Assembly (NCBI GenBank): GCA_964016885.1 | Contig: OZ024749.1 | Location: 15,190,001 to 15,254,000, forward strand | Length of the DNA: 64,000 nucleotides | Source of the DNA: Eledone cirrhosa | Lineage: Eukaryota | Reading direction: 5' to 3' | Part shown: positions 5,346 through 48,934 of the stretch, piece after piece | Layout of the letters: the number at the start of each line of letters is the position of its first letter | Position numbering within the stretch: the stretch's first letter is position 1 | The notes under the pieces: model-generated | Database searches by the model: none | Told to the model about the DNA's origin: nothing | Seen by the model: only the letters and a program-made list of their open reading frames with translations | Program-made: the position numbers and the translations under genes

Positions 5346-5364
5346 TAGTTATGGCTTTTACTTT

Positions 5365-22915: not shown

Positions 22916-25060
22916 ATGTCTGACAAAACCAAAAATCTATACACCATGACTCCTGAAATTTACAACTTTTTCCTTCTTAAAAAACTCAACAAAAACTATA
23001 AAAAAACTACACCCTCCAGTGTAAACGTACTTAACCGAAAAGCCCAGACTTTGGTTAAGGACTTGCATTTGGATAGATTTACCCACCCTTATGTACCAAC
23101 AACTCCAAGGTTCTCTCTCAAGGACCACAAGCCAAACTTTATAGAGAACCCATCCATTAGACTCATAAGCCCAACCACATCTGACCTCGGCCGCATCAGT
23201 AAGAACATCCTTGATAGGATAATCCCTGGGCTACGGGATAATACTACCTACAAGTTGTGGTCCAACACCGGCCAAGTCATCAGATGGTTCTCCGATCTAA
23301 GGTCCAAGCAATCTATGAGGTTCATCCAATTTGATATAGACAGCTATTATGCGTCAATAACCCCGGAACTGCTCAACAAAGCACTAGCCCTAGCAACCAC
23401 CAACTCGGACATAACCAATAATGAGATTAACATCATACTCATGGCTAGGCAGACTATCATTGAATTCAACAGAGCACTCTGGACTAGAAAAGATAGAACA
23501 GATAACTTTGACATTACGATGGGCTCAAGTGACTCCGTGCAAGTCACCGATTTAGTTGGGATTTACCTATTACGTAACATCAGAGCCGAAATCCAGCCCA
23601 TGCAAGGTGGAATATACAGGGACGACGCCCTATTTGCAGTCCACAATTGCACTAATCGGGGAATCGATTTGCTTAAGAAACAATTTCATAGATTCTTCAA
23701 AAATAACGGTCTCTCTATCGCCATCGAGCTGAACCATAAAGTAGTAAACTTCCTAGATGTCACCCTTGATCTCAACAATAACCTTTATAACCCTTATCAT
23801 AAACCAGGCGAAATACTCACATATATTAGCCCACACTCTAACCACCCACCGGCAGTCATCAGAGCAGTAATCAAATCTATCTCCTATAGGATCTCAATGC
23901 TATCAGCAAATGAAGAGATATTTATAAACCACGCACAATATTATAATAAGGCTCTCTCTGAATCTGGTTATAAACAATCAATTTATTACATACCAAAATA
24001 CCATAACACAGCAACTCACCATAATAAACTTAACACTAGAACTAGAAATACCTTAGCATATAGCCAGATTCGCCGGAATTTTAGCAGTAACAGCACCTAT
24101 ACAGGGAACTTTAATGATGGTAGCGGCCTGCTCCCCACTCCTAGTAGCAAACTAAGAATCAACCCTAGAATAGGAATGAGAAATGGGATGACAAATAACA
24201 AACCCCCAGGTAATAATAACCCTAGGAAGGCCCCTACCAACTCCACTAGAACCCCTAGAAGTAATAGGCCTAGAAATATCACCTGGCTTAACCCACCATT
24301 CTCATCTAATCTAGCCACTAATATCCCCAATCACTTTTTCTCTATCCTATCCAAACACTTCCCCCCTAACCATAGATATTACAAACTCTTTAATAAAAAC
24401 AACATTAAAATATCATTCTCCACTACACCTAACCTAGCTAGCCACATCGCGTTCAGTAACCATCATAAGCTAAGACACTATAACTCCCACACCGCAGTAC
24501 CACCACCCCTATCAAATACACCACACCACTACACCAATAATTACTCTAGTAGCACACCTCCCCCATCTAATCCTTCTAGCACGGACCAACTGCTTAGGTT
24601 AAATAACCCTACTCTCACTAACCGCAGAAGCAACTGCCGGTACCCCAATGCATGCCCATTAAATGGAAACTGCCTGACACCCAACATAGTCTATAGGTGC
24701 ACAGTTGAGACTGCTTCGAATACCAGCTCTTATATCGGGTCTACCTCTAACCCTTTTAAGGTACGCTATAACGCGCACTCTTTTTCCTTCCAAGACCCTA
24801 GCAACAGATGTTCGACATCGCTAGCTAGGCTCATTAAAAACCTTAAATTAAACAAAGTTCAACACTCACTAAAATGGGATATCGTAGCTAGGGCCCAACC
24901 GTTCAATGGACGAAGGAAATCTTGTGATCTCTGTGTTACGGAAGCATATTACATAACTCTATCAAGACCTCTACCAATTAACGATAGAACGGAGGTAACC
25001 ATTAGCTGTCAACATCGAAGGGCTAATTCCTTCGCCAATAGAGTTTTTGACCCAACTTAG
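22916..25060 (+). CDS. Penelope-like element RT plus C-terminal GIY-YIG endonuclease, Hydra-clade-like (714 aa; frame probably extends upstream across an A-run frameshift)
   Basis: LKDHKPNF..RLISP, FIQFDIDSYYASI, FDITMG, GIYRDD, VNFLDVTL, WLNPPF, CRYPNACPLNGNC, NIVYRC..YIGST..R...H, CDLC..E. Upstream DPFEKDLFNFVRSIKF lies in another frame. Confidence 0.9.
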   Translation: MSDKTKNLYTMTPEIYNFFLLKKLNKNYKKTTPSSVNVLNRKAQTLVKDLHLDRFTHPYVPTTPRFSLKDHKPNFIENPSIRLISPTTSDLGRISKNILDRIIPGLRDNTTYKLWSNTGQVIRWFSDLRSKQSMRFIQFDIDSYYASITPELLNKALALATTNSDITNNEINIILMARQTIIEFNRALWTRKDRTDNFDITMGSSDSVQVTDLVGIYLLRNIRAEIQPMQGGIYRDDALFAVHNCTNRGIDLLKKQFHRFFKNNGLSIAIELNHKVVNFLDVTLDLNNNLYNPYHKPGEILTYISPHSNHPPAVIRAVIKSISYRISMLSANEEIFINHAQYYNKALSESGYKQSIYYIPKYHNTATHHNKLNTRTRNTLAYSQIRRNFSSNSTYTGNFNDGSGLLPTPSSKLRINPRIGMRNGMTNNKPPGNNNPRKAPTNSTRTPRSNRPRNITWLNPPFSSNLATNIPNHFFSILSKHFPPNHRYYKLFNKNNIKISFSTTPNLASHIAFSNHHKLRHYNSHTAVPPPLSNTPHHYTNNYSSSTPPPSNPSSTDQLLRLNNPTLTNRRSNCRYPNACPLNGNCLTPNIVYRCTVETASNTSSYIGSTSNPFKVRYNAHSFSFQDPSNRCSTSLARLIKNLKLNKVQHSLKWDIVARAQPFNGRRKSCDLCVTEAYYITLSRPLPINDRTEVTISCQHRRANSFANRVFDPT

Positions 25061-25548: not shown

Positions 25549-25906
25549 GGGCATTATTATTATTAATATTATTATTATTCTCTACATTCCTTACATCAAA
25601 CTAAATATGTTGACAATCTTTTAATAATGTCTTCCTTGTGAAATTTGTGGTCTTGTTTTGCTTAACTAATGAATAAATATATATATATTTATAAATATAT
25701 ATATATATAAATATATATATATATAAATATATATATATATAAATATATATATATATAAATATATATATATATAAATATATATATATATAAATATATATAT
25801 ATATAAATATATATATATATAAATATATATATATATAAATATATATATATATAAATATATATATATTTATATATATATATATATAAATATATATATATTT
25901 ATATAT

Positions 25907-25939
<33 letters not shown>

Positions 25940-25950
25940 AATATATATAA

Positions 25951-25981
<31 letters not shown>

Positions 25982-26028
25982 AATATATATATATATAAAT
26001 ATATATATAAATATATATATATATAAAT

Positions 26029-26059
<31 letters not shown>

Positions 26060-26062
26060 AAT

Positions 26063-26093
<31 letters not shown>

Positions 26094-26096
26094 AAT

Positions 26097-26263
<167 letters not shown>

Positions 26264-26264
26264 A

Positions 26265-26307
<43 letters not shown>

Positions 26308-26344
26308 TATATATATATAAATATAAATATATATATATATAAAT

Positions 26345-26435
<91 letters not shown>

Positions 26436-26436
26436 A

Positions 26437-26486
<50 letters not shown>

Positions 26487-26568
26487 TAATATATATATAT
26501 AAATATAAATATATATATATATAAATATATATATATAAATAAATATATATATATAAATAAATATATAT

Positions 26569-26601
<33 letters not shown>

Positions 26602-26610
26602 AATATATAA

Positions 26611-26688
<78 letters not shown>

Positions 26689-26689
26689 T

Positions 26690-26785
26690 ATAGTTTTGCA
26701 AGGTTTTTTATATGAAACCGTGTGTCGAGACAAATATTGTTATACTTGGGGAGGGTCATATTCTGTAATAATGCCAGAATTAATA
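26690..26785 (-). mobile_element. ~95-bp terminal tail of a diverged relative of the 1210-aa PLE
   Basis: Encodes [23 protein letters not shown] versus [23 protein letters not shown]; flanked by TA. Confidence 0.85.
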
Positions 26786-26799
26786 ATATATATATAAAT

Positions 26800-26830
<31 letters not shown>

Positions 26831-26861
26831 AATGTATATATATATATATATAAATGTATAT

Positions 26862-26892
<31 letters not shown>

Positions 26893-26901
26893 AATGTATA
26901 T

Positions 26902-26932
<31 letters not shown>

Positions 26933-26935
26933 AAT

Positions 26936-26966
<31 letters not shown>

Positions 26967-27440
26967 AATATATATATATATAAATGTATATATATATATA
27001 TATATAAATGTATATATATATAAATGTATATATATATATATAAATGTATATATATATATAAATGTATATATATATATAAATGTATATATATATATAAATG
27101 TATATATATATATATATAAATGTATGAAATATGAAATATAAGAATCAAAGAACTGTTCAAAACATTATTGTGCTTACAGCTTTCCTCCAAACCGAGGTTT
27201 GGGTTCTTCGGACCAATTTATTAATGCATGGACAGTTATATGACCTCCTTTTCAGCCGAGAGACATACCAATACATATTCAAACATTGATACATATTGAT
27301 ATTGATACATAAATGTATATATATATATATAAATGTATATATATATATAAATGTATATATATATATAAATGTATATATATATATATATATATAAATATAT
27401 ATATATATAAATATAAATATATATATATATAAATATAAAT

Positions 27441-27471
<31 letters not shown>

Positions 27472-27556
27472 AATGTATATATATAAATATAAATGTATAT
27501 ATATATATATAAATGTATATATATATAAATATATATATATATATAAATATATATAA

Positions 27557-27591
<35 letters not shown>

Positions 27592-27686
27592 AATATATAA
27601 ATATAAATATATATATATATAAATATATATATATAAATATAAATAAATATAAATATATAAATATATATAAATATATATAAATATAA

Positions 27687-27717
<31 letters not shown>

Positions 27718-27787
27718 AATATAAATATATATAAATATAAATAAATATATATATAAATATATATATATATATAAATATATATATATG

Positions 27788-27897
<110 letters not shown>

Positions 27898-27996
27898 TAA
27901 ATATATATATATAAATATATATATAAATATAAATATATATATATAAATATATATATATAAATATATATAAATATATATATATAAATATATATAAAT

Positions 27997-28048
<52 letters not shown>

Positions 28049-28082
28049 ATATTTATATAGATATATTTATATATATATTTAT

Positions 28083-28276
28083 ATACGGTGCTGACGATAG
28101 CTAACAAGCTTGAAACTAGTATATCGTTCCTGTGTCAGTGTTGAACAAAAAGGTGACGTGGTTGCCTAAACACTGTACGGCGTAAATCAGGCTGTTCGTT
28201 TGTTTACAAACGGACAAAGCGAACATTATAATAAATGTTCGGTAAACTGATACATGCATATATATATGTGTGCCTG

Positions 28277-28280
<4 letters not shown>
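28083..28280 (+). mobile_element. PLE pLTR remnant with hammerhead (CUGACGA core)
   Basis: Diverged reverse complement of ~21975-22175; ACGGUG-CUGACGA-UAGCU..AGCUU-GAAAC-UA-GUA-UAUCGU. Confidence 0.75.
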
Positions 28281-28318
<38 letters not shown>

Positions 28319-28329
28319 TATATCTATAC

Positions 28330-28472
<143 letters not shown>

Positions 28473-28781
28473 TATACATATACATATATATATCTATACA
28501 TATATATCTATACATATATATCATCATCATCATCATCATTTTACGTCATATATATATAGATATGTATATATATATATATACATACATATATATACATATA
28601 CATATCTATATATATACACATATATATACATATACATATATATATATACATATATATACATATACATATATATATATACATATATATACATATACATATA
28701 TATATATACATATATACATATATATATACATATATATACATATATACATATATATATATACATATATATACATATATATAC

Positions 28782-28820
<39 letters not shown>

Positions 28821-28875
28821 CATATATACATATATATATATACATATATACATATATATATATACATATATATAC

Positions 28876-28998
<123 letters not shown>

Positions 28999-29023
28999 CA
29001 TATATATACATATATATATATAA

Positions 29024-29092
<69 letters not shown>

Positions 29093-29129
29093 CATATATA
29101 TACATATATATATATAAATATATATATAC

Positions 29130-29180
<51 letters not shown>

Positions 29181-29189
29181 CATATATAC

Positions 29190-29372
<183 letters not shown>

Positions 29373-29517
29373 CATATACACATATACACACATATATATA
29401 TACATATATATATATATACACATATACACACATATATATATATATATATATATACATATATATATACATATACACACATATATATATATATATATATATA
29501 CATATATATATACATAT

Positions 29518-29566
<49 letters not shown>

Positions 29567-29853
29567 CATATATATACATATATATATATACATATACACA
29601 TATATATATATATACATATATATACATATATATATATACATATACACATATATATATATATACATATATATACATATACACATATATATACATATACATA
29701 TATATACATATACACATATATATATATATACATATATATACATATACACATATATATACATATACATATATATACATATACACATATATATATATACATA
29801 TATATATATATACATATATTTATATATACATATACACATATATATACATATAC

Positions 29854-29884
<31 letters not shown>

Positions 29885-30166
29885 CATATATATATACATA
29901 TATATATATATATACATATACATATACACATATATATACATATACACATATATATACATATACATATATATATATATACATATACATATACACATATATA
30001 TACATATACATATATATATACATATATATATATATACATATACATATATATATATATACATATATATCTATACATATATATATATCTATACATATATATC
30101 TATACATATATATATATCTATACATATATATATATATCTATACATATATATATATCTATACATATA

Positions 30167-30200
<34 letters not shown>

Positions 30201-30327
30201 CATATATATACATATACATATATATACATATACATATATATACATATACATATACATATATATACATATACATATACATATATATACATATACATATATA
30301 CATATATATATACATATATATATATAT

Positions 30328-30936
30328 GGTGGCTGCCAACTCGTTTTCGAGTACGGCCACTACATTATATCCATGTAGGAGAACCCCTACCGATGCGCTG
30401 AACGAGTGTGACTTTTCAGTCCAGCCAGCGATTTGAAAACTCTAGTACAAACACTACACCTGTGACAATGATTGACACACAGTGCTGGGCCCATGGTACC
30501 ATGTGACGACAAGTGCAGAGAGATCTCCAGATATAAAGCAATGCCTGTGCCGTGAAGCTTTTATAGTGAGCAAAGGCACTGCACAAAGCCAGTCCCACTC
30601 TCTTAACCAAGATGATATTTACCAAAAAGAAGAACGAGTCAACATCATTGGATACCATCAGGGTTGCAGGTGTTATATCAGAGTTTTCCTTCTCCTAGAA
30701 TTCTGCCTTGACAAAGGCTAATGGGTCATCTCTCCCGGTGATTTTGGATGGCCATTGACTCTTAAGAGCTCCTTTGCCCTTTGACAGGTCTTGCTTTTAG
30801 TCCTGCAGATGTCCAAAGTCACCCTCCTCACCAAGAAACCTTGGTGGGGTTGCCAGTTTAGTCGCCAACGACCCGACCATGAGACAGGTTGTACTGGGAT
30901 ACATGTTACCAGTAGCACCAAGTGGTGCCCTGACGT
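30328..30936 (-). mobile_element. Interspersed repeat family C, longer copy
   Basis: Matches 8212-8616 and, more distantly, 61067-61590; inserted in a (TA/TACA)n array. Confidence 0.75.
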
Positions 30937-31023
30937 AATACATATATATATATATATACATATATATATACATATATATATACATATATATATACATACA
31001 TATATATATACATATATATATAC

Positions 31024-31106
<83 letters not shown>

Positions 31107-31191
31107 CATATATACATATATATATATACATATATATATATACATATATACATATATATATATACATATATACATATATATATACATATAC

Positions 31192-31388
<197 letters not shown>

Positions 31389-31411
31389 CATATATATATA
31401 CATATATATAT

Positions 31412-31530
31412 GAAGGCGTGTAGCTGAGTGGTTAGAGAATTGGATTCACAATGTTAAGGTTGTGAGTTCGATTCCTGGACCAGGCGATGCGTTATGTCCT
31501 TGGGCAAGACACTTTATTTCACGTTGCTCC
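31412..31530 (+). mobile_element. Diverged CORE-like SINE head related to family A
   Basis: TAGCTGAGTGG A box, GAGTTCGATTCC B box, CCTTGGGCAAGACACTTTATTTCAC. Confidence 0.7.
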
Positions 31531-31709
31531 TTCTACCTGGAGTTGCGACCGATAGATAGTACTAGCAACTGGAAAGACCAACGGAAACATTGTTTCCTCG
31601 GTCCGATTTGACGAAAGTCGATCGATAGGAAAAATATATATATATATACATATATACATATATATACATATATACATATATATACATATATACATATATA
31701 CATATATAC

Positions 31710-31884
<175 letters not shown>

Positions 31885-31991
31885 CATATATATATATACA
31901 TATATATATATACATATATATATACATATATATATACATATATATATACATATATATATACATATATATATATATATACATATATATATAC

Positions 31992-32022
<31 letters not shown>

Positions 32023-32083
32023 AACATATATATATATATACATATATATATATACATATATATATATATACATATATACATAC

Positions 32084-32132
<49 letters not shown>

Positions 32133-32216
32133 TATATACATATACATATATAACATATATATATATATACATATATATATACATATACATATATATATAT
32201 ATATACATATATATAC

Positions 32217-32248
<32 letters not shown>

Positions 32249-32268
32249 ATATATATACATATATATAC

Positions 32269-32321
<53 letters not shown>

Positions 32322-32367
32322 CATATATACATATATATATATATATACATATATATATACATATACA

Positions 32368-32401
<34 letters not shown>

Positions 32402-32420
32402 CATATATATATACATATAC

Positions 32421-32610
<190 letters not shown>

Positions 32611-32723
32611 GTATATATATATGTATATATATATATATGTATATATATATGTATGTATATATATATGTATATATATATATGTATATATATATATATGTAT
32701 ATATATATATGTATATATATATG

Positions 32724-32756
<33 letters not shown>

Positions 32757-32769
32757 GTATATATATATG

Positions 32770-32820
<51 letters not shown>

Positions 32821-32861
32821 GTATATATGTATATATATATATACTCTCTACCGATACTGCC

Positions 32862-35800
32862 AATTAATAACAGAACACACTCACTGTTTGGTTGGTTTTC
32901 GCTTCTCGCTGTCTTTTATTATATCTGCGATCTAACTTACTCGGTCCTCAATGTTGCCATTGACTGACCGGCGGTCAAAAATAATACAGATACAATATAG
33001 ACACAAACACATATATATAGTTTACATAATTTACATAAATCTTTCGTTGCACATCTGCAACATCGTCAGTGGTGTTATATTCATTGTTCCTCCTGTTGTG
33101 TTGTATGTCTACGCCATTTTTTTTTGTTCAGTCTGTCTATATATTTATTTATTTATTTGCTTGTTTGTTTATCTTATTTTATTTTGTCTTCTTTGCGCAT
33201 GCGTTTGCGTGTGTGTATAGTGTTATGTGTGATGTGTGACTAGTGTGTATAGTGTTGTGTCTGCTGGGTGACTAGTGTGTGTTTATGTGCTTGTGTATGT
33301 ATTTATTTATCTTATTTTATTTAATTTTATTTACTTATTTATACTTCTCTTAGGTCAGTGTTGTTTGTTTGGGTGTTGTTGTTGTTCCACTCATTCTTTC
33401 TGTTTAGCTTTGGTCTTCTAATTTATATTTCACTGGCCTCTCTGATTTGCCTATCTGCTGGGTCATTCCTATGTTTAGATATTATTCTAATTTCTATGTT
33501 GTCTATGTTACCGTCATGTTGTTGTCTAGCATGTTCGTATAGTACTGACCCGTTTTTTCGTCCTTTTAGTTCCCCCCAGTGTTGGTCTATCCTTTCACCT
33601 ATGCTACGAGCTGTCTCACCTATGTATGTTGTTGTCATGTTTCTGCAAGTACCCTCTGTACATCTTATGCTATAGACTACGTTTCTAGTTTTACAGTTTA
33701 TCCGGGGGTTCACCTTACATATGATACATTTCCTATTGGTACAGTGGGTTTTCTTAAAAGGGTAGGTTTTGCTGATCAGGGATTTTATGGTGGTTCCTGG
33801 CTTTTCTACCACCTTTATTTTTAAGTGGGTCTTTCTCAGGGCCTTTCTACACTGGTTAGCTAATTTCCCTCCAGGGGTGGCGTCCACAAACATGACACTC
33901 TGATATCTCTGGTTGTCGTACCATGATGTGGCCTTCCCTATCTTATGTCTAGCCCTATCTAAGCTATTCCATGATTTGCTCCTGTATAGTGGGCAAATTC
34001 CTTTCATGTCCAGTTCTATGAGGGTCTTATACTTTTCCATGGCTCCTTCGTATACTCTGACTCTGTCTCTTTGGTTGTAGCCAGAGAACTGCATGCGGTT
34101 GATGAAGTGTTGGATGTGTCCTTCCATTTCTGTTGGGTCGCACATGCTGGACACATTCTTCATCACTCGTACCAAATCTGCGATCAGAATATTAAACTTA
34201 GCACTACTGGACATTGCTGAGTTTTTGAGTATCAGGTATTTGGAGGCCATGGGTTTAGCATAGTGTGAGTGGAGAATTTGGGCTCTCTCGTCTATAGTGT
34301 TAATCCAGAGTTCTGTGTCTAATACAGGTAGTCTATTGTTAGGGTGTTTGGAAGGGAAGTCTATAGTTACAGTTATACTCTGGTGTATGGAATTAGCTAT
34401 CTGCTGGATGCTTTCCATCGTGCTACGTTCTAAATCAAACTTGTTAGTGCTCTCTAGTGGGGGTGTTCTTATAACTATATTGATATCGTCTACATAACGA
34501 GAGTACATGATGAGGTCTATGGAGCTTTCATTAAGGAGATCTTTAAGTCTCCTTTCCCACCATACCATGAAAAGGTTGGCAACATCACCAGCTATGCTGA
34601 CGCGGATGGCTGCTCCCTCATTTTGGGTGTAGATTTTCTCATTGAACTTAAATATGTGGCCCTTTAGGGTAGTTTTGATACTAGCCCCTATTGCATGTGC
34701 GACCATTTTTCTTACCTGATCAGTGTTTTGGGGGGTCCGTATAGCTTTGGTCCACCCAATCCACCTTCCTATGGGTGTCTTTTTAGCCATTGAAGTTATG
34801 GTGGGGGGTCTACCTCTTATAGGTCTACTAGGGCAGAAACATCTAAGGTCATGGCTGTCTAGGTAGTCAGTGTCGTAGGTAAGTCTAAGTAGGAGGCCCA
34901 GTTCGTCTGTGTCGACGTCGCAGAACTCCACCTCACTCTCAATGATCATCTCCACACATCTTTTCACAGCAAAATCAATGTTAATGGATGGGTACAGTGA
35001 CACCACATCCATGCTGCCTATTATGCAGTTGGATAGGCTCCTGTTTTTGTTGCACTCACTGATTCACTGATTCTGCTGAGGAGGTCCTCTGTACTTTCAC
35101 TTACATCTGGGGACATCTTGATTATGGGGCGTATAACCATTGAGAGGAAGTAGGAGATCCTGTAGTTGCTAGCTATATTAGCTCCGCATACGGGTCTTGT
35201 TGGTGGTCCTGTTGTCGGGTCGTCGACTGTCTTGAGGTCTTTGCGGAGCCCATACAAGGGTGGTATGCCATTGTTAGACGCCTGGAAGTTGTTGGCAGTG
35301 TGTCTGCTTGGCTTAGAATAATATCTAAACATAGAATAATATCTAAACTTAGAATAATATCTAAATATAGAATAATATCTAAACATAGAATAATATCTAA
35401 ACATAGAATAATATCTAAACATAGAATAATATCTAAACATAGAATAATATCTAAACATAGAATAATATCTAAACATAGAATAATATCTAAACTTAGAATA
35501 ATATCTAAACATAGGAATGACCCAGCAGATAGGCAAATCAGAGAGGCCAGTGAAATAGAAATTAGAAGACCAAAGCTAAACAGAAAGAATGAGTGGAACA
35601 ACAACAACACCCAAACAAACAAGACTGACCTAAGAGAAGTATAAATAAGTAAATAAAATTAATTATAATAAGATAAATAAATACATACACAAGCACATAA
35701 ACACACACTAGTCACCCAGCAGACACAACACTATACACACTAGTCACACATCACACATAACACTATACACACACGCAAACGCATGCGCAAAGAAGACAAA

Positions 35801-36172
35801 ATAAAATAAGATAAACAAACAAGCAAATAAATAAATAAATATATAGACAGACTGAACAAAAAAAAAATGGCGTAGACATACAACACAACAGGAGGAACAA
35901 TGAATATAACACCACTGACGATGTTGCAGATGTGCAACGAAAGATTTATGTAAATTATGTAAACTATATATATGTGTTTGTGTCTATATTGTATCTGTAT
36001 TATTTTTGACCGCCGGTCAGTCAATGGCAACATTGAGGACCGAGTAAGTTAGATCGCAGATATATATATATAAAAGACAGCGAGAAGCGAAAACCAACCA
36101 AACAGTGAGTGTGTTCTGTTATTAATTCTGGCAATATTACGCAAATATGACCCTCCCCAAATATAACAATAT
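32862..36172 (-). mobile_element. Defective copy of the large PLE: 5'-truncated minus-strand body (32862-~35314) plus inverted 3' segment (~35314-36172)
   Basis: Near-identical to 42990-45436; premature TAA at 33423, GAAIG to GAAIR, 8-bp duplication at ~35060; HHRs at 33033-33075 (-) and 35911-35952 (+). Confidence 0.92.
35313..35514 (+). repeat. 11 x 18-bp tandem (TAGAATAATATCTAAACA) at the PLE inversion junction
   Basis: The unit occurs once in the element (codes RIISKH); 11 RIISK repeats in ORF 35300..35644. Confidence 0.95.
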
Positions 36173-36561
36173 TTATTTATATATATATATAAATATATAT
36201 ATAAATATATATCTATATATATATATTTATTTATATATATATATATATATTTATTTATATATATATATAAATATATATATAAATATATATCTATATATAT
36301 ATTATTTATTATATATATATATAAATAAATATATATATATATATTTATTTATATATATATATATATATTTATTTATATATATATATAAATAAATATATAT
36401 ATATATTTATTTATATATATATATAAATATATATATAAATATATATCTATATATATATATTTATTTATATATATATATATATATTTATTTATATATATAT
36501 ATAAATATATATATAAATATATATCTATATATATATATTTATTTATATATATATATAAATA

Positions 36562-36598
<37 letters not shown>

Positions 36599-37170
36599 AT
36601 ATTTATTTATATATATATAAATAAATATATATATATATATTTATTTATATATATATATATATTTATTTATATATATATATAAATAAATATATATATATAT
36701 ATTTATTTATATATATATATATATTTATTTATTTATATATATATATAAATATATATATAAATATATATCTATATATATATTTATTTATTTATATATATAT
36801 AAATATATATCTATATATATATATTTATTTATTTATATATATATATAAATATATATATAAATATATATCTATATATATATATTTATTTATATATATATAT
36901 AAATATATATATAAATATATATCAATATATATATATTTATTTATATATATATAAATATATATATAAATATATATATATATAAATATATATATATATTTAT
37001 TTATATATAAATATGTATATATATAAATATATATATATAAATATATATATATATTTATTTATATATATATAAATATATTTATAAATATATATATATATAT
37101 ATATTTATTTATATATAAATATATTTATAAATATATATATATATATATATAAATATATAAATATATATTT

Positions 37171-37204
<34 letters not shown>

Positions 37205-37302
37205 AATATCTATATCTATCTATATATATATATATATATATATAAATATATATATAAATATATATATCTATATCTATATATATCTATCTATAAATATATA
37301 TA

Positions 37303-37354
<52 letters not shown>

Positions 37355-37581
37355 TATATATAAATATATATATCTATATAAATTATATATATATATCTAT
37401 ATCTATATCTATATATATTTATATATATATTTATATATATATATAAATAAATATATATATATATAACTAAATATATATATATATATTATTTATATATATA
37501 TAAATAAATATATATATTTATTTATATATATATAAATATATATCTATATATATATATTTATTTATATATATATATAAATAA

Positions 37582-37615
<34 letters not shown>

Positions 37616-38198
37616 ATATTTATTTATATATATATAAATAAATATATATATATATATTTATTTATATATATATATATATATATTTATTTATATATATATA
37701 TAAATAAATATATATATATATATTTATTTATATATATATATATTTATTTATTTATATATATATATAAATATATATATAAATATATATCTATATATATATA
37801 TTTATTTATTTATATATATATAAATATATATATAAATATATATCTATATATATATATTTATTTATTTATATATATATAAATATATATATAAATATATATC
37901 TATATATATATATTTATTTATATATATATATAAATATATATATAAATATATATCAATATATATATATTTATTTATATATATATAAATATATATATAAATA
38001 TATATATATATAAATATATATATATATTTATTTATATATAAATATATATATATAAATATATATATATAAATATATATATATATTTATTTATATATATATA
38101 AATATATTTATAAATATATATATATATATATATTTATTTATATATAAATATATTTATAAATATATATATATATATATATAAATATATAAATATATATT

Positions 38199-38236
<38 letters not shown>

Positions 38237-38250
38237 AATATCTATATCTA

Positions 38251-38286
<36 letters not shown>

Positions 38287-38340
38287 TATATATAAATATA
38301 TATATCTATATCTATATATATCTATCTATAAATATATATA

Positions 38341-38392
<52 letters not shown>

Positions 38393-38608
38393 TATATATC
38401 TATATAAATTATATATATATATCTATATCTATATCTATATATATTTATATATATATTTATATATATATATAAATAAATATATATATATATAAATAAATAT
38501 ATATATATAAATATATTTATATATATATAAATAAATATATATATTTATTTATATATATATAAATATATATCTATATATATATATTTATTTATATATATAT
38601 ATAAATAA

Positions 38609-38642
<34 letters not shown>

Positions 38643-38866
38643 ATATTTATTTATATATATATAAATAAATATATATATATATATTTATTTATATATATAT
38701 ATATATATATTTATTTATATATATATATAAATAAATATATATATATATAAATAAATATATATATATATATTTATTTATATATATATAAATAAATATATAT
38801 ATTTATTTATATATATATAAATATATATCTATATATATATATTTATTTATATATATATATAAATAA

Positions 38867-38900
<34 letters not shown>

Positions 38901-39469
38901 ATATTTATTTATATATATATAAATAAATATATATATATATATTTATTTATATATATATATATATTTATTTATATATATATATAAATAAATATATATATAT
39001 ATATTTATTTATATATATATATATATTTATTTATATATATATATAAATATATATATAAATATATATCTATATATATATATTTATTTATTTATATATATAT
39101 AAATATATATATAAATATATATCTATATATATATATTTATTTATTTATATATATATATAAATATATATCTATATATATATATTTATTTATATATATATAT
39201 AAATATATATATAAATATATATCAATATATATATATTTATTTATATATATATAAATATATATATAAATATATATATATATAAATATATATATATATTTAT
39301 TTATATATAAATATATATATATATAAATATATATATATAAATATATATATATATTTATTTATATATATATAAATATATTTATAAATATATATATATATAT
39401 ATATTTATTTATATATAAATATATTTATAAATATATATATATATATATATAAATATATAAATATATATT

Positions 39470-39505
<36 letters not shown>

Positions 39506-39521
39506 AATATCTATATCTATC

Positions 39522-39553
<32 letters not shown>

Positions 39554-39607
39554 TATATATAAATATATATATCTATATCTATATATATCTATCTATAAAT
39601 ATATATA

Positions 39608-39653
<46 letters not shown>

Positions 39654-39871
39654 TATATATCTATATAAATTATATATATATATATCTATATCTATATCTA
39701 TATATATTTATATATATATTTATATATATATATAAATAAATATATATATATATAAATAAATATATATATATATATTTATTTATATATATATAAATAAATA
39801 TATATATTTATTTATATATATATAAATATATATCTATATATATATATTTATTTATATATATATATAAATAA

Positions 39872-39905
<34 letters not shown>

Positions 39906-39944
39906 ATATTTATTTATATATATATAAATAAATATATATATATA

Positions 39945-39975
<31 letters not shown>

Positions 39976-40474
39976 TTATTTATATATATATATAAATAAA
40001 TATATATATATATATTTATTTATATATATATATATATTTATTTATTTATATATATAAATATATATATAAATATATATCTATATATATATATTTATTTATT
40101 TATATATATATAAATATATATATAAATATATATCTATATATATATATAAATATATATATAAATATATATCTATATATATATATTTATTTATATATATATA
40201 TAAATATATATATAAATATATATCTATATATATATATTTATTTATATATATATAAATATATATATAAATATATATATATATAAATATATATATATATTTA
40301 TTTATATATAAATATATATATATATAAATATATATATATATAAATATATATATATATTTATTTATATATATATAAATATATTTATAAATATATATATATA
40401 TATATATTTATTTATATATAAATATATTTATAAATATATATATATATATATATATAAATATATAAATATATATT

Positions 40475-40508
<34 letters not shown>

Positions 40509-40518
40509 AATATCTATA

Positions 40519-40556
<38 letters not shown>

Positions 40557-40610
40557 TATATATAAATATATATATCTATATCTATATATATCTATCTATA
40601 AATATATATA

Positions 40611-40662
<52 letters not shown>

Positions 40663-40958
40663 TATATATCTATATAAATTATATATATATATATATCTAT
40701 ATCTATATCTATATATATTTATATATATATTTATATATATATATAAATAAATATATATATATATAAATAAATATATATATATATATTTATTTATATATAT
40801 ATAAATAAATATATATATTTATTTATATATATATAAATATATATATAAATATATATATCTATATATATCTATATATATATAAATTATATATATATATATC
40901 TCTCTCTCTCTATATATATATATATATAAATTATATCTATATATATCTATATATATAT
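36173..40958. repeat. (TA)n-derived array with ~1.0-1.3-kb higher-order repeats
   Basis: Marker TCTATATAAATTATA near 37373, 38399, 39660, 40669; ATCAATAT near 36921, 37952, 39221. Confidence 0.8.
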
Positions 40959-42063: not shown

Positions 42064-43470
42064 TTTATATATATATATAAATAAATATATATATATATAT
42101 TTATTTATATATATATATATAAATATATATATAAATATATATCTATATATATATATATTTATTTATATATATATATATATATTTATTTATATATATATAT
42201 ATATATAAATATATATCTATATATATATATTTATTTATATCTATATATATATATTTATTTATATATATATATATATAAATATATATATATATATTTATTT
42301 ATATATATATATATATTTATTTATATATATATAAATAAATATATATATATATATTTATTTATATATATATATATATTTATTTATATATATATATAAATAG
42401 ATATATATATATATATTTATTTATATATATATTTATTTATTTATATATATATATAAATATATATATAAATATATATTTATTTATATATATATATATATAT
42501 TTATTTATATATATATAAATAAATATATATATATATATTTATTTATATATATATATATATTTATTTATATATATATATAAATAAATATATATATATATAT
42601 TTATTTATATATATATATATATATTTATTTATCTATATATATATATTTATTTATTTATATATATATATATAAATATATATCTATTTATTTATTTATATAT
42701 ATATATATAAATATATATCTATATATATATATTTATTTATATATATATATAAATATATATATAAATATATATCTATATATATATATTTATTTATATATAT
42801 ATAAATATATATATAAATATATATATATATAAATATATATATATATTTATTTATATATAAATATATATATATATAAATATATATAGCGGCGATGAATTAG
42901 TTTTGCGAGGTTTTTTATATGAAATCGTGTGTCGAAACAGATATTGTTATATTTGGGGAGGGTCATATTTGCGTAATATTGCCAGAATTAATAACAGAAC
43001 ACACTCACTGTTTGGTTGGTTTTCGCTTCTCGCTGTCTTTTATATATATATATCTGCGATCTAACTTACTCGGTCCTCAATGTTGCCATTGACTGACCGG
43101 CGGTCAAAAATAATACAGATACAATATAGACAAACACATATATATATAGTTTACATAAATCTTTCGTTGCACATCTGCAACATCGTCAGTGGTGTTATAT
43201 TCATTGTTCCTCCTGTTGTGTTGTATGTCTACGCCATTTTTTTTTTTTGTTCAGTCTGTCTATATATTTATTTATTTATTTGCTTGTTTGTTTATCTTAT
43301 TTTATTTTGTCTTCTTTGCGCATGCGTTTGCGTGTGTGTATAGTGTTATGTGTGATGTGTGATGTGTGACTAGTGTGTATAGTGTTGTCTGCTGGGTGAC
43401 TAGTGTGTGTTTATGTGCTTGTGTATGTATTTATTTATCTTATTTTATTTAATTTAATTTACTTATTTAT

Positions 43471-46400
43471 TTATACTTCTCTTAGGTCAGTGTTGTTTGT
43501 TTGGGTGTTGTTGTTGTTCCACTCATTCTTTCTGTTTAGCTTTGGTCTTCTAATTTCTATTTCACTGGCCTCTCTGATTTGCCTATCTGCTGGGTCATTC
43601 CTATGTTTAGATATTATTCTAATTTCTATGTTGTCTATGTTACCGTCATGATGTTGTCTAGCATGTTCGTATAGTACTGACCCGTTTTTTCGTCCTTTTA
43701 GTTCCCCCCAGTGTTGGTCTATCCTTTCACCTATGCTACGAGCTGTCTCACCTATGTATGTTGTTGTCGTGTTTCTGCAAGTACCCTCTGTACATCTTAT
43801 GCTATAGACTACGTTTCTAGTTTTACAGTTTATCCGGGGGTTCACCTTACATATGATACATTTCCTATTGGTACAGTGGGTTTTCTTAAAAGGGTAGGTT
43901 TTGCTGATCAGGGATTTTATGGTGGTTCCTGGCTTTTCTACCACCTTTATTTTTAAGTGGGTCTTTCTCAGGGCCTTTCTACACTGGTTAGCTAATTTCC
44001 CTCCAGGGGTGGCGTCCACAAACATGACACTCTGATATCTCTGGTTGTCGTACCATGATGTGGCCTTCCCTATCTTATGTCTAGCCCTATCTAAGCTATT
44101 CCATGATTTGCTCCTGTATAGTGGGCAAATTCCTTTCATGTCCAGTTCTATGAGGGTCTTATACTTTTCCATGGCTCCTTCGTATACTCTGACTCTGTCT
44201 CTTTGGTTGTAGCCAGAGAACTGCATGCGGTTGATGAAGTGTTGGATGTGTCCTTCCATTTCTGTTGGGTCGCACATGCTGGACACATTCTTCATCACTC
44301 GTACCAAATCTGCGATCAGAATATTAAACTTAGCACTACTGGACATTGCTGAGTTTTTGAGTATCAGGTATTTGGAGGCCATGGGTTTAGCATAGTGTGA
44401 GTGGAGAATTTGGGCTCTCTCGTCTATAGTGTTAATCCAGAGTTCTGTGTCTAATACAGGTAGTCTATTGTTAGGGTGTTTGGAAGGGAAGTCTATAGTT
44501 ACAGTTATACTCTGGTGTATGGAATTAGCTATCTGCTGGATGCTTTCCATCGTGCTACGTTCTAAATCAAACTTGTTAGTGCTCTCTAGTGGGGGTGTTC
44601 TTATAACTATATTGATATCGTCTACATAACGAGAGTACATGATGAGGTCTATGGAGCTTTCATTAAGGAGATCTTTAAGTCTCCTTTCCCACCATACCAT
44701 GAAAAGGTTGGCAACATCGCCAGCTATGCTGACGCCGATGGCTGCTCCCTCATTTTGGGTGTAGATTTTCTCATTGAACTTAAATATGTGGCCCTTTAGG
44801 GTAGTTTTGATACTAGCCCCTATTGCATGTGCGACCATTTTTCTTACCTGATCAGTGTTTTGGGGGGTCCGTATAGCTTTGGTCCACCCAATCCACCTTC
44901 CTATGGGAGTCTTTTTAGCCATTGAGGTTATGGTGGGGGGTCTACCTCTTATAGGTCTACTAGGGCAGAAACATCTAAGGTCATGGCTGTCTAGGTAGTC
45001 AGTGTCGTAGGTAAGTCTAAGTAGGAGGCCCAGTTCGTCTGTGTCGACGTCGCAGAACTCCACCTCACTCTCAATGATCATCTCCACACATCTTTTCACA
45101 GCAAAATCAATGTTAATGGATGGGTACAGTGACACCACATCCATGCTGCCTATTATGCAGTTGGATAGGCTCCTGTTTTTGTTGCACTCACTGATTCTGC
45201 TGAGGAGGTCCTCTGTACTTTCACATACATCTGGGGACATCTTGATTATGGGGCGTATAACCATTGAGAGGAAGTAGGAGATCCTGTAGTTGCTAGCTAT
45301 ATTAGCTCCGCATACAGGTCTTGTTGGTGGTCCTATTGTCGGGTCGTCGACTGTCTTGTGGTCTTTGCGGAGCCCATACAAGGGTGGTATGCCATTGTTA
45401 GACGCCTGGAAGTTGTTGGCAGTGCGTCTGCTTGGCTTTAGGATGTCAGTCCACATCATCATGTGAGCGTTGAGGATTTTTTCTCTCCCATCGTGTGTTA
45501 GTTGTGCAACTTCGCTCGTGTTGGTGATGTGGGGTTGCATTGCCTCGATGTAGTTCGGCATGCTATCTATTGACATCCTACCAGACTTATCTGTGGGTAG
45601 ACACACTACCTCACCATCCCTTGTGCGCTGCTTGAGGCTAACCAAGCCTTCTACAGGTTTTATCCCAAGTTGTTGGGCCTCTGGTCTGCTCTGTCTCATA
45701 GTGTACCTGTCTACTACTTGTCTAATCTTATTTCTAGCTATGGTGAACTGTGCCTCCGTCTCGTCATCTATTTGTTGTGGTATGCAAACTCTTTTATTAA
45801 AGGGTAACCTCGTAGGATAGATATTACCCATCTTATATGTTTTGTCAGCTGGGTTGAAAAATAGTTTCTCTAAGGGGTTGTCGTTATTTCTATCGTCATA
45901 GTTGTGTGTGTTGCTATTATTGTTATCATGGTGGTTGTTGTTGTTTCTATCCTTAGCATTAATATTATTATTGTTATGATTGCTAGATGTATTGTTGTTT
46001 ACTTCACCGTTATTGTTGTTGTTACTGCTATTTCTACCATTGTGGTTGTTACTATTATTATGTTTCTTGTTTTTGTTGATGTTGCTACATGTACTATTTC
46101 CATTATTACCACTGTGGTTATTGTTGTTGTTGTTGTTCGTATTGTTACCGTTATTACTACTGTGGTCACTGTTGCTGTGTCTGTGGTTAACGTTTCTATT
46201 ATTATTATTATTGTGGTTGTTGTTGTTCTGTCTATCGCTAGTATTATTACCATTATCACTATTTCTCACTTTCCTGCCATTGTTATGGTTATGGCTGTTA
46301 TTTCTATACCCAGAGTTATTGTTTATATTACTACTACCGTTATTATTGTTGTTGTTGTTGTTTACCTTTGCATTCCAACGTATTTTTGTGAAACACTTTT

Positions 46401-47103
46401 CCAGCTCCGTTTTGCATTCCATAGGATTAATCTTTTTGTAGATGGCAAATTTTGGTGGTAACTTTAGGATTTGTTGTTCTTGTTCACTGATTAAAGTGTT
46501 CCCATAGATATTTACTGTGTGGTCATTGGTAAATTCTTCCGGTAGTTTTACATCACTCATACGGATGTTGTCGATGTTATCTGGGTATTTTTGAGAATAT
46601 TCGATTTTCCTTTCTTGTAGTTTTTTCTTATTCATCCATTCTAATTTCTTCTTGAAATGCCTACAGCATTCGTTTTGAGCATATTTCGTTTCGCGTCGGA
46701 TGACGCTCATGAAGTCATCTCTCTCGTTTGCTGTGATGAGATTTCGGATTTCCTTACCGTTGATGCGTTTTTGTCTGTAGAGTGCGTTGACTTTTGTGTA
46801 TGTTGTTCTTTTCATATTAACTGTTATTGTGTGTTTTAGCCGTTCAGCTTGTGTTTTGTTCAATAATAAATTATTTACTTGTTTTGATATGTTTGTTGTG
46901 TATGTTTTGGAGGAAACACAGTGTTTTAAGAAGCGGATTTGTTCTGTTGTTATTGTAGTTTTTATATAACAGAAAACAGTGTCTTTCAATAACCTTTCAG
47001 CTTGGCACAAGCTAATGCCATAGCGGCGATGAATTAGTTTTGCGAGGTTTTTTATATGAAATCGTGTGTCGAAACAGATATTGTTATATTTGGGGAGGGT
47101 CAT
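43471..47103 (-). CDS. PLE polyprotein, 1210 aa: N-terminal domain, Asn-rich tract, RT, Cys linker, GIY-YIG endonuclease (possibly Nematis-like clade)
   Basis: PTDKSG, LYGLRKDHK, RPVC, GSMDVVSLYPSI, QNEGAAIG, RYVDD, LPVLD, HYAKP, CTNRKCIIC..C, NVVYSIRC..C..YIGETAR...R..QH..H..RE; uninterrupted ORF. Confidence 0.95.
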   Translation of the reverse strand: MTLPKYNNICFDTRFHIKNLAKLIHRRYGISLCQAERLLKDTVFCYIKTTITTEQIRFLKHCVSSKTYTTNISKQVNNLLLNKTQAERLKHTITVNMKRTTYTKVNALYRQKRINGKEIRNLITANERDDFMSVIRRETKYAQNECCRHFKKKLEWMNKKKLQERKIEYSQKYPDNIDNIRMSDVKLPEEFTNDHTVNIYGNTLISEQEQQILKLPPKFAIYKKINPMECKTELEKCFTKIRWNAKVNNNNNNNNGSSNINNNSGYRNNSHNHNNGRKVRNSDNGNNTSDRQNNNNHNNNNNRNVNHRHSNSDHSSNNGNNTNNNNNNNHSGNNGNSTCSNINKNKKHNNSNNHNGRNSSNNNNNGEVNNNTSSNHNNNNINAKDRNNNNHHDNNNSNTHNYDDRNNDNPLEKLFFNPADKTYKMGNIYPTRLPFNKRVCIPQQIDDETEAQFTIARNKIRQVVDRYTMRQSRPEAQQLGIKPVEGLVSLKQRTRDGEVVCLPTDKSGRMSIDSMPNYIEAMQPHITNTSEVAQLTHDGREKILNAHMMMWTDILKPSRRTANNFQASNNGIPPLYGLRKDHKTVDDPTIGPPTRPVCGANIASNYRISYFLSMVIRPIIKMSPDVCESTEDLLSRISECNKNRSLSNCIIGSMDVVSLYPSINIDFAVKRCVEMIIESEVEFCDVDTDELGLLLRLTYDTDYLDSHDLRCFCPSRPIRGRPPTITSMAKKTPIGRWIGWTKAIRTPQNTDQVRKMVAHAIGASIKTTLKGHIFKFNEKIYTQNEGAAIGVSIAGDVANLFMVWWERRLKDLLNESSIDLIMYSRYVDDINIVIRTPPLESTNKFDLERSTMESIQQIANSIHQSITVTIDFPSKHPNNRLPVLDTELWINTIDERAQILHSHYAKPMASKYLILKNSAMSSSAKFNILIADLVRVMKNVSSMCDPTEMEGHIQHFINRMQFSGYNQRDRVRVYEGAMEKYKTLIELDMKGICPLYRSKSWNSLDRARHKIGKATSWYDNQRYQSVMFVDATPGGKLANQCRKALRKTHLKIKVVEKPGTTIKSLISKTYPFKKTHCTNRKCIICKVNPRINCKTRNVVYSIRCTEGTCRNTTTTYIGETARSIGERIDQHWGELKGRKNGSVLYEHARQHHDGNIDNIEIRIISKHRNDPADRQIREASEIEIRRPKLNRKNEWNNNNTQTNNTDLREV

Positions 47104-47139
47104 ATTTGCGTAATATTGCCAGAATTAATAACAGAACAC

Positions 47140-47182
47140 ACTCACTGTTTGGTTGGTTTTCGCTTCTCGCTGTCTTTTATAT
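47140..47182 (-). promoter_or_regulatory. Candidate TATA/Inr-like promoter upstream of the PLE ATG
   Basis: TATAAAAG about 35 nt before ACAGT, 43 nt upstream of ATG 47103; motif resemblance only. Confidence 0.3.
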
Positions 47183-47289
47183 ATATATATCTGCGATCTA
47201 ACTTACTCGGTCCTCAATGTTGCCATTGACTGACCGGCGGTCAAAAATAATACAGATACAATATAGACAAACACATATATATATAGTTT

Positions 47290-47332
47290 ACATAAATCTT
47301 TCGTTGCACATCTGCAACATCGTCAGTGGTGT
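47290..47332 (-). ncRNA. Minimal hammerhead ribozyme in the pLTR (identical copy at 43153-43195)
   Basis: CA-CUGACGA-UGUUGCA-GAUG-UGCAAC-GAAA-GAUU-UA-UG; stems I and III are weak. Confidence 0.65.
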
Positions 47333-48934
47333 TATATTCATTGTTCCTCCTGTTGTGTTGTATGTCTACGCCATTTTTTTTTTTTGTTCAGTCTGTCTAT
47401 ATATTTATTTATTTATTTGCTTGTTTGTTTATCTTATTTTATTTTGTCTTCTTTGCGCATGCGTTTGCGTGTGTGTATAGTGTTATGTGTGATGTGTGAT
47501 GTGTGACTAGTGTGTATAGTGTTGTCTGCTGGGTGACTAGTGTGTGTTTATGTGCTTGTGTATGTATTTATTTATCTTATTTTATTTAATTTAATTTACT
47601 TATTTATTTATACTTCTCTTAGGTCAGTGTTGTTTGTTTGGGTGTTGTTGTTGTTCCACTCATTCTTTCTGTTTAGCTTTGGTCTTCTAATTTCTATTTC
47701 ACTGGCCTCTCTGATTTGCCTATCTGCTGGGTCATTCCTATGTTTAGATATTATTCTAATTTCTATGTTGTCTATGTTACCGTCATGATGTTGTCTAGCA
47801 TGTTCGTATAGTACTGACCCGTTTTTTCGTCCTTTTAGTTCCCCCCAGTGTTGGTCTATCCTTTCACCTATGCTACGAGCTGTCTCACCTATGTATGTTG
47901 TTGTCGTGTTTCTGCAAGTACCCTCTGTACATCTTATGCTATAGACTACGTTTCTAGTTTTACAGTTTATCCGGGGGTTCACCTTACATATGATACATTT
48001 CCTATTGGTACAGTGGGTTTTCTTAAAAGGGTAGGTTTTGCTGATCAGGGATTTTATGGTGGTTCCTGGCTTTTCTACCACCTTTATTTTTAAGTGGGTC
48101 TTTCTCAGGGCCTTTCTACACTGGTTAGCTAATTTCCCTCCAGGGGTGGCGTCCACAAACATGACACTCTGATATCTCTGGTTGTCGTACCATGATGTGG
48201 CCTTCCCTATCTTATGTCTAGCCCTATCTAAGCTATTCCATGATTTGCTCCTGTATAGTGGGCAAATTCCTTTCATGTCCAGTTCTATGAGGGTCTTATA
48301 CTTTTCCATGGCTCCTTCGTATACTCTGACTCTGTCTCTTTGGTTGTAGCCAGAGAACTGCATGCGGTTGATGAAGTGTTGGATGTGTCCTTCCATTTCT
48401 GTTGGGTCGCACATGCTGGACACATTCTTCATCACTCGTACCAAATCTGCGATCAGAATATTAAACTTAGCACTACTGGACATTGCTGAGTTTTTGAGTA
48501 TCAGGTATTTGGAGGCCATGGGTTTAGCATAGTGTGAGTGGAGAATTTGGGCTCTCTCGTCTATAGTGTTAATCCAGAGTTCTGTGTCTAATACAGGTAG
48601 TCTATTGTTAGGGTGTTTGGAAGGGAAGTCTATAGTTACAGTTATACTCTGGTGTATGGAAGTTAGAGTAAGTTAGATCGCAGATATATATATATAAAAG
48701 ACAGCGAGAAGCGAAAACCAACCAAACAGTGAGTGTGTTCTGTTATTAATTCTGGCAATATTACGCAAATATGACCCTCCCCTAAATATATATATATATA
48801 AATATATATATATATTTATTTATATATATATAAATATATTTATAAATATATATATATATATATATATTTATTTATATATAAATATATTTATAAATATATA
48901 TATATATATATATATAAATATATAAATATATATT

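Follow-up and report, generated by a model that had tools for sequence, protein, structure and literature searches.

The window analysed here, the whole 64,000-nt stretch of contig OZ024749.1 from Eledone cirrhosa, contains two insertions of one young Penelope-like element (PLE) family, both of which sit in (TA)n-type tracts. Copy A comprises one full unit with an 81-nt tail that ends in a (TA)n tract (42886..47020, minus strand) and carries an intact 1210-aa open reading frame encoding a reverse transcriptase (RT) plus a GIY-YIG at the C terminus (43471..47103, minus strand). Upstream of it lies a partial tandem copy, the pLTR (47021..48661, minus strand), with 0 substitutions versus copy A in 1643 columns, and an inverted arm of 117 nt (48666..48782, plus strand) that stops 12 nt into the ORF start. 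Copy B is composed of a 5′-truncated main arm (32853..35313, minus strand), which corresponds to copy A positions 1584 to about 4040 and bears an 8-nt frameshifting duplication at about 35056, and of an inverted arm (35494..36172, plus strand), a 5′-truncated sense copy covering the end of the GIY-YIG region, the 3′ UTR and a tail of 26 nt running into the ORF start. The two arms meet head to head with a tandem array between them. At its 3′ end (window 32843-32862) the main arm stops about 19 nt short of the start codon; about 18 nt that do not belong to the element then separate it from a microsatellite. A 96-bp remnant of the 3′ tail of the same family, 91% identical, is located within (TA)n at 26691-26786 (minus strand).

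The 1210-aa product displays the RT motifs GSMDVVSLYP, GAAIG and RYVDD and, at the C terminus, a GIY-YIG domain with CX4CXXC and CCHH motifs, and its best homolog is an Octopus vulgaris protein (68% identity). Pfam assigned no family to the protein itself at E 0.001 or 5; among the aligned homologs RVT_1 was matched in 4 of 30 and GIY-YIG in 3 of 30. The homolog alignment showed that in the CCHH of the endonuclease C1111 is invariant and C1116, H1154 and H1159 are at least 90% conserved, and that C1084, C1089 and C1092, forming the CX2-5CxxC upstream of GIY-YIG, are invariant; the latter motif is a Neptune/Nematis criterion in the accessible text of PMC8557442. The element has a single ORF with RT and C-terminal GIY-YIG, as canonical EN+ PLEs do, and the partial tandem pLTR, the adjacent inverted truncated copy (a known feature of PLEs) and the tail reproduce the canonical layout described in that same text. 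By these criteria of motifs and layout, applied to the sequence, it belongs with the canonical EN+ PLEs of the Neptune/Nematis type. A search of solved structures with the homolog alignment matched two bacterial DRT proteins only, TERT being absent. No Rfam match was obtained for 42800-48900. The 3′ UTR includes a hammerhead-like core (CUGA-GA, 7-bp stem II, GAAA) at 43162-43189 (minus strand), for which stems I and III were not found; in copy B a 9-nt duplication directly follows this core. A long Asn-rich low-complexity stretch of the ORF (45900-46400, minus strand) separates the N-terminal region from the RT. Elsewhere in the window a second, unrelated PLE ORF of 725 aa (22883-25060, plus strand), possibly of Hydra- or Neptune-type, ends in a GIY-YIG-like region with no evident CCHH, and its alignment to P0001 is limited to the endonuclease core. 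Two decayed copies of a LINE-like RT element (51134-53500 and 16881-18543) are mutually inverted and 74% identical.

The array between the arms of copy B (35314..35511, plus strand) consists of 11 units of 18 bp, and is closed by TAG at 35512-35514, after which unique element sequence resumes. Its source, a TAG-15 nt-TAG segment within the endonuclease coding sequence (RIISKH), is single in each element copy and lies on the minus strand at 33469, 43601 and 47738, the native single copy of the copy B main arm occupying 33469..33489 and that of copy A 43601-43621. Since the segment is present once per element copy, ten of the units are regarded as added and one as native. The units are identical apart from their endings, which are CA in 8 of 11, CT in units 2 and 10, and TA in unit 3 alone. 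The bases preceding successive TAGs across the array are T, A, T, then A seven times, T and A, so that the order of variants read at the base before TAG is TATAAAAAAATA. The first base of the inverted arm is also the first of the array, and a start within 2 nt of a cDNA end has a probability of about 0.002 (9,053 element bases, 4 cDNA ends in the window); confinement of 3 independent changes to any two adjacent columns has a probability of 0.021. The original prediction of 11 18-bp units at the cDNA end of a PLE inversion, derived from one TAG-TAG segment per element and differing solely at the point of realignment, was confirmed in the sequence in all these respects. TRF did not report the array among the matches listed, and the region falls within an (AT)n call at 25673-40958. 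A weak 5-bp hairpin (35313..35328, plus strand; stem TTAGA/TCTAA, 6-nt loop; dG −0.7 kcal/mol as DNA and −1.2 kcal/mol as RNA), the first base of which is the arm boundary, spans most of an array unit; a comparable stem starts at 25 of 4115 positions of copy A. A coding role was considered, as 2 of 6 frames are open through the array (RIISKH and LCLDII repeats), yet copy B is truncated and frameshifted with no sign of use, and the array is without predicted function.

The arms of copy B share a TT microhomology (35313..35314, plus strand) at which the main arm reads ggc(TT) and the inverted arm (TT)AG, and an imperfect match of 6 in 7 (TTAGGAT/TTAGAAT) lies near the junction. The C at 35312 together with the TT yields CTTAG, which is seen again in the CT variant units. 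The 3′ extent of the inverted arm exceeds that of the main arm by about 35-45 nt, and for this reason we favour two separately primed cDNAs, in which case both ends meeting at the junction would be cDNA 3′ ends. The two arms of copy A likewise end at different tail positions, and purified PLE protein has been reported to cut and extend both strands (PMC11167929, accessible part). Fold-back of the main cDNA as the source of the inverted arm is disfavoured, as this arm runs 35-45 nt past the 3′ end of the main one. Snap-back on the hairpin was rejected as the source of the units, which are direct rather than alternating.

It is quite probable that the array was born in one episode of iterative microhomology realignment at integration, because a start so near to a cDNA end is improbable by chance and because a history of duplications only fails. 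In a computed search, in-register block duplications alone gave no path from one unit to the variant order observed, and when deletions were allowed as well the shortest path took 6 events; conversions instead of a deletion would also need about 6 by our own count, made outside the path search. A single iterative episode, by contrast, yields this order at once. The arms of copy B differ by 5 substitutions in 636 columns, and 3-4 private changes in 1260 nt correspond to a divergence of 0.24-0.32% since insertion, which with the calibration taken from the available part of PMC13282606 would place the insertion of copy B at under about 1 million years. Such divergence predicts 0.5-0.6 later changes in the 198-nt array, where 1 unexplained change, the TA, is seen; the TA unit is likely to reflect one later point change.

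The same data render rather improbable the growth of an ordinary minisatellite, that is one junction duplication made during repair and expanded afterwards by stepwise slippage, unequal exchange or conversion. Such growth would have to accommodate no fewer than 6 separate events, a deletion or else conversions among them, within the 0.24-0.32% divergence. The 9-nt duplication, which is older than the insertion, still counts 2 copies in either arm of copy B, and element duplications of period 6-40 elsewhere (non-microsatellite, four pieces scanned) amount to 2 to 3.1 copies. Several observations nevertheless speak for later growth: the window is rich in long minisatellites, which makes it plausible in this genome; single duplications are found at or near junctions and within the element; both variant letters, T and A, are already present at the two ends of a single unit; the hairpin would stabilise loop-outs; and TE segments flanked by short direct repeats are a known origin of minisatellites, according to the accessible text of a review (PMC6947457). 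Against the prediction it had been put that expansions might be as frequent inside elements as at junctions; single 7-9 nt duplications do occur within the element away from junctions, but none exceeds 3.1 copies. Repeat addition rather than later slippage, as originally proposed, is therefore retained in so far as a single episode fits the position and the variant order better, and its attribution to the RT copying RNA is unsupported.

An error of assembly or sequencing, to which an inverted repeat of 700 bp enclosed by very long (AT)n tracts might give rise, is very improbable, given 198 bp with three distinct internal variants and the accuracy of the neighbouring sequence (the intact 1210-aa ORF and the 0 substitutions in 1643 columns). 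In its favour, PLE inverted structures are noted to cause assembly trouble (PMC8557442, accessible part) and no read or contig among the matches listed, from runs of other individuals, shows the copy B junction. The reference used for mapping was copy A and not the array. The Hi-C runs X12 and X13 gave 1 and 0 reads matching copy A of 12.8 million each. Contigs matching copy A numbered 523 in X1, several of them 99.7-100% identical, and 15,712 in X6, and the joint 45438/43620 was absent among the 15 of 37 joints and the 12 of 531 loose ends listed, a share too small for this absence to carry weight. In a related species the family shows a very high copy number, with a 40-fold gradient of depth from 3′ to 5′. 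In the 45262-45292 region four X6 contigs share a joint that leads from about 45290 back to near 45265 and contains 11-18 additional letters, which amounts to a gain of 41-42 nt if it is a same-strand duplication; one filler equals the element tail near the start codon. One further X6 contig has a tandem joint from 43941 to 42947, the filler of which opens with 11 nt that the element contains once, at 43615-43625, where the source segment of the array has its boundary.

As for the template of the reiteration, the contexts placed in register are AAAT-TAG upstream in the element, AACA-TAG downstream and GGCT-TAG at the genomic junction. CTTAG equals the genomic junction, with a match at −2 to the downstream context (C/C), as against a mismatch (A/C) with the upstream context of the element. 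An overshoot on RNA leaves a terminal mismatch, whereas a two-base overshoot on joined DNA leaves a matched C:G end and an identical CTTAG. The CT-TAG variant, taken in the prediction for one extra templated base, is thus not diagnostic of an RNA template because the genomic junction (ggCTTAG) has the same letters: the T before the first TAG occurs there too, preceded by C, and CT-TAG is a 5-nt copy of the junction as much as one extra templated base. The RNA template and the RT assumed at the outset are unsupported, as the CT variant fits copy-back on joined DNA at least as well. All T boundaries, three with the final junction included, stop at the same base and none takes the next upstream A, which fits an RNA end or a pause just as well as joined DNA. 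In the predicted MFE RNA fold (181-nt segment, z −1.7) the template is preceded on its 5′ side by 21 unpaired nt and hence by no boundary stem. The locus does possess the A-B-A′ template (TAG-15 nt-TAG) and the (A-B)n product of telomerase-type reactions, and the array may be likened to repeat addition by realignment on a terminal redundancy. A telomerase-type reaction is not established because two defining features of telomerase and DRT10, a stable 5′ boundary stem (by prediction) and a dedicated non-coding template RNA, are lacking. The TT microhomology and an insert made of the first 18 nt of one arm are what is expected of an SD-MMEJ / Pol theta junction.

We lean, with reservation, towards DNA-templated copying and realignment during the joining of two cDNA ends. 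The array would be a by-product of integration, made in ten successive cycles in which copying was followed by a slip back on a direct repeat of 3 nt, with DNA as the probable template. Nicking and priming of both target strands would produce two cDNAs whose single-stranded 3′ ends face each other and anneal via TT/AA. The nascent strand would then repeatedly release and re-anneal at the TAG 18 nt away, with some aid from the small hairpin, in 2 of 10 cycles after its synthesis had entered the junction by one or two bases (C-T-TAG), and fill-in and ligation would complete the process. A host end-joining polymerase (Pol theta / SD-MMEJ type) and the PLE RT acting on DNA are both candidate enzymes, between which the sequence is indifferent. 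What weighs against DNA-templated joining is that the case appears at a single locus, that 7 of 8 junctions of relatives bear no reiteration, and that ten cycles have no precedent: no published end-joining product with ten perfect 18-mer cycles was found in the accessible portions of open-licence PubMed Central and bioRxiv texts.

Another possibility, which we regard as doubtful, is that the PLE RT worked on its own RNA, copying TAG-15 nt-TAG at the end of the second cDNA and realigning at the downstream TAG in ten cycles, in two of which one extra base had been added first, before this cDNA was joined to the other arm. The geometry A-B-A′ is that of telomerase and DRT10, and PLE RTs are the most similar to TERT among RTs (both PMC12632851, available part). 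The array lies at a cDNA 3′ end and is built from one arm only, with every T boundary at one base and the next upstream A never included. Telomerase-like slippage at initiation has been described for the eel LINE UnaL2 (accessible text of PMC1636434). The four X6 joints from a related species, running from 45289-45292 back to 45262-45267 with their 11-18 extra letters, count in the same direction, and the filler that matches the element's own tail is consistent with RT template switching inside the ORF. On the other side, the undiagnostic CT-TAG would require extension from a terminal mismatch, an 18-nt unit would rely on an alignment region of just 3 nt, and the repeat AACATAG, 7 nt long and situated 7 nt further upstream in the RNA, was left unused. 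The predicted fold has no stable stem 5′ of the template, which DRT10 requires (PMC12632851), canonical PLEs are described without the IFD of TERT (PMC8557442), and the in vitro study of a PLE (PMC11167929) mentions no ladder, slippage or repeat addition, each as far as the available text of these sources goes. The duplicated unit of a distant relative, L008, also appears to straddle its junction. That the PLE RT has a latent repeat-addition processivity, by which it would realign and copy anew ten times on any TAG-N15-TAG-like stretch at a pause or RNA end, is a tentative suggestion.

For the comparison with relatives 80 of 147 confirmed loci, drawn from 598 candidate stretches, were taken. 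Eleven were flagged, of which L011 and L013 are reference partners and L045 and L048 represent one event, leaving 8 inversion junctions; those of L027 and L036 were located only roughly. Among the 80 loci listed, reiteration is present at 1 of the 8 junctions (L008, 2 x 19 nt), none has more than 2 copies, and the other 7 are clean or microhomology joins. Reiteration at PLE inversion points is thus a recurrent but occasional event, with 11 copies as an outlier. In L008, a short-read metagenome contig, the 19-nt unit is duplicated at the inversion junction (41-81) and includes a 13-nt exact run, which was reached in 0 of 1500 random windows of the relatives' elements and in 2.4% of copy A windows. 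The first 15 nt of the unit are the end of the antisense arm, and the AAAATG that follows matches the ORF of the relative L039 from base 76 on and not before. The unit thus appears to span the antisense and sense arms; were this so, a DNA template would be needed, since the element RNA could not have served as one. An alternative parse, in which the antisense arm alone is reiterated, needs 2 shared changes. A long chance homology behind the L008 junction is disfavoured, the longest chance inverted match in this element being 10 nt. The inverted arm of L008 carries a hammerhead-like core.

The insertions resemble, in the accessible description of inverted-pLTR EN+ PLEs (PMC8557442), those with a partial tandem and an adjacent inverted 5′-truncated copy, a tail into the ORF start, (TA)n targets, and an RT with C-terminal GIY-YIG and both Zn-finger-like motifs; they differ in that no multi-copy repeat is described there at the inversion point, where copy B has 10 extra 18-mers. 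Neither a multi-copy array at the inversion junction of a PLE nor repeat addition by a PLE RT was found described in open-licence PubMed Central and bioRxiv. Inversion junctions of L1 have been described as products of end joining, 10 of 32 carrying duplications of 1-10 bp (PMC11702581, accessible part), and R1 and R2 junctions are reported in part of the literature seen to carry microhomologies. L1 twin-priming (PMC11702581) and R2 snap-back and joining (PMC11371274), so far as the accessible texts go, resemble copy B in that microhomology unites two cDNA ends, with short duplications and with additional templated synthesis ahead of the join, but involve single 1-10 bp duplications or one snap-back as opposed to ten cycles; moreover, both PLE arms begin at the 3′ tail instead of one being primed internally. 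Direct repeats are described as a product of SD-MMEJ, which primes on repeats of 2-4 nt by loop-out or in trans (PMC5728401, available part). Inserts made by SD-MMEJ or Pol theta (PMC5728401, PMC4912351) likewise have their source no more than a few tens of bases from the break and are primed on 2-4 nt repeats, with a hairpin-forming end sequence, yet in the accessible text they are single or mixed in contrast to the clean 11-unit array. With telomerase, DRT10 and DRT2 (PMC12632851, PMC12039810, accessible parts) the array shares the A-B-A′ logic, the direct A-B repeat and an RT of the same broad clade; it differs in having no dedicated template RNA or stable boundary stem, in the putative nature of any RNA templating, in the 3-nt alignment for an 18-nt unit and in being a one-off by-product. 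In the slippage of UnaL2, already likened to telomerase in the available text of PMC1636434, a retrotransposon RT also re-copies a short segment, but does so at initiation and on a 5-nt repeat that the RNA already has at its 3′ end, while the present repeat is at the far cDNA end and was made from unique sequence.

How PLEs build their inverted structures is considered an open question in the accessible part of PMC8557442. The ten-cycle reiteration at the joint may be a record of the formation of such a structure, and it suggests that one integration event is enough to produce a minisatellite of 11 copies. Were the RT to have copied its own RNA, the closest eukaryotic relatives of TERT would have given a first sign of telomerase-like repeat addition, the array would be a genomic fossil of an ancestral reaction common to telomerase and DRT10, and retrotransposition itself would make minisatellites in one step; were a host polymerase responsible, it would be an unusually clean case of iterative end-joining synthesis. 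The array is a single-locus case and a lead, and for the question of RT on RNA the window offers both the intact 1210-aa ORF and the exact template.

A few observations concern other junctions. At the second inversion junction of the window (48660..48677, plus strand) AAGTTAGA occurs twice at 10-nt spacing, about 1.6 units; the 8-nt run at this spacing is not significant alone (null 0.056-0.139), and the junction was dropped as independent support for reiteration. Both inversion junctions of the window (35313-35316 and 48662-48666) fall on a TTAG present in each partner arm, every time offset by 1 nt. TTAG, the start of the animal telomere repeat, begins 34 of 8270 strand positions of the element, and the coincidence, noticed post hoc, may be due to chance. 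In the relative L068 a long near-perfect palindrome (4778-5672) is centred on a GC-rich hairpin of the element itself, and its inversion arose by switching at this internal inverted repeat. In L073 tandem CTAAACC repeats, which are telomere-like, lie beside a PLE-related RT (4695-4810).
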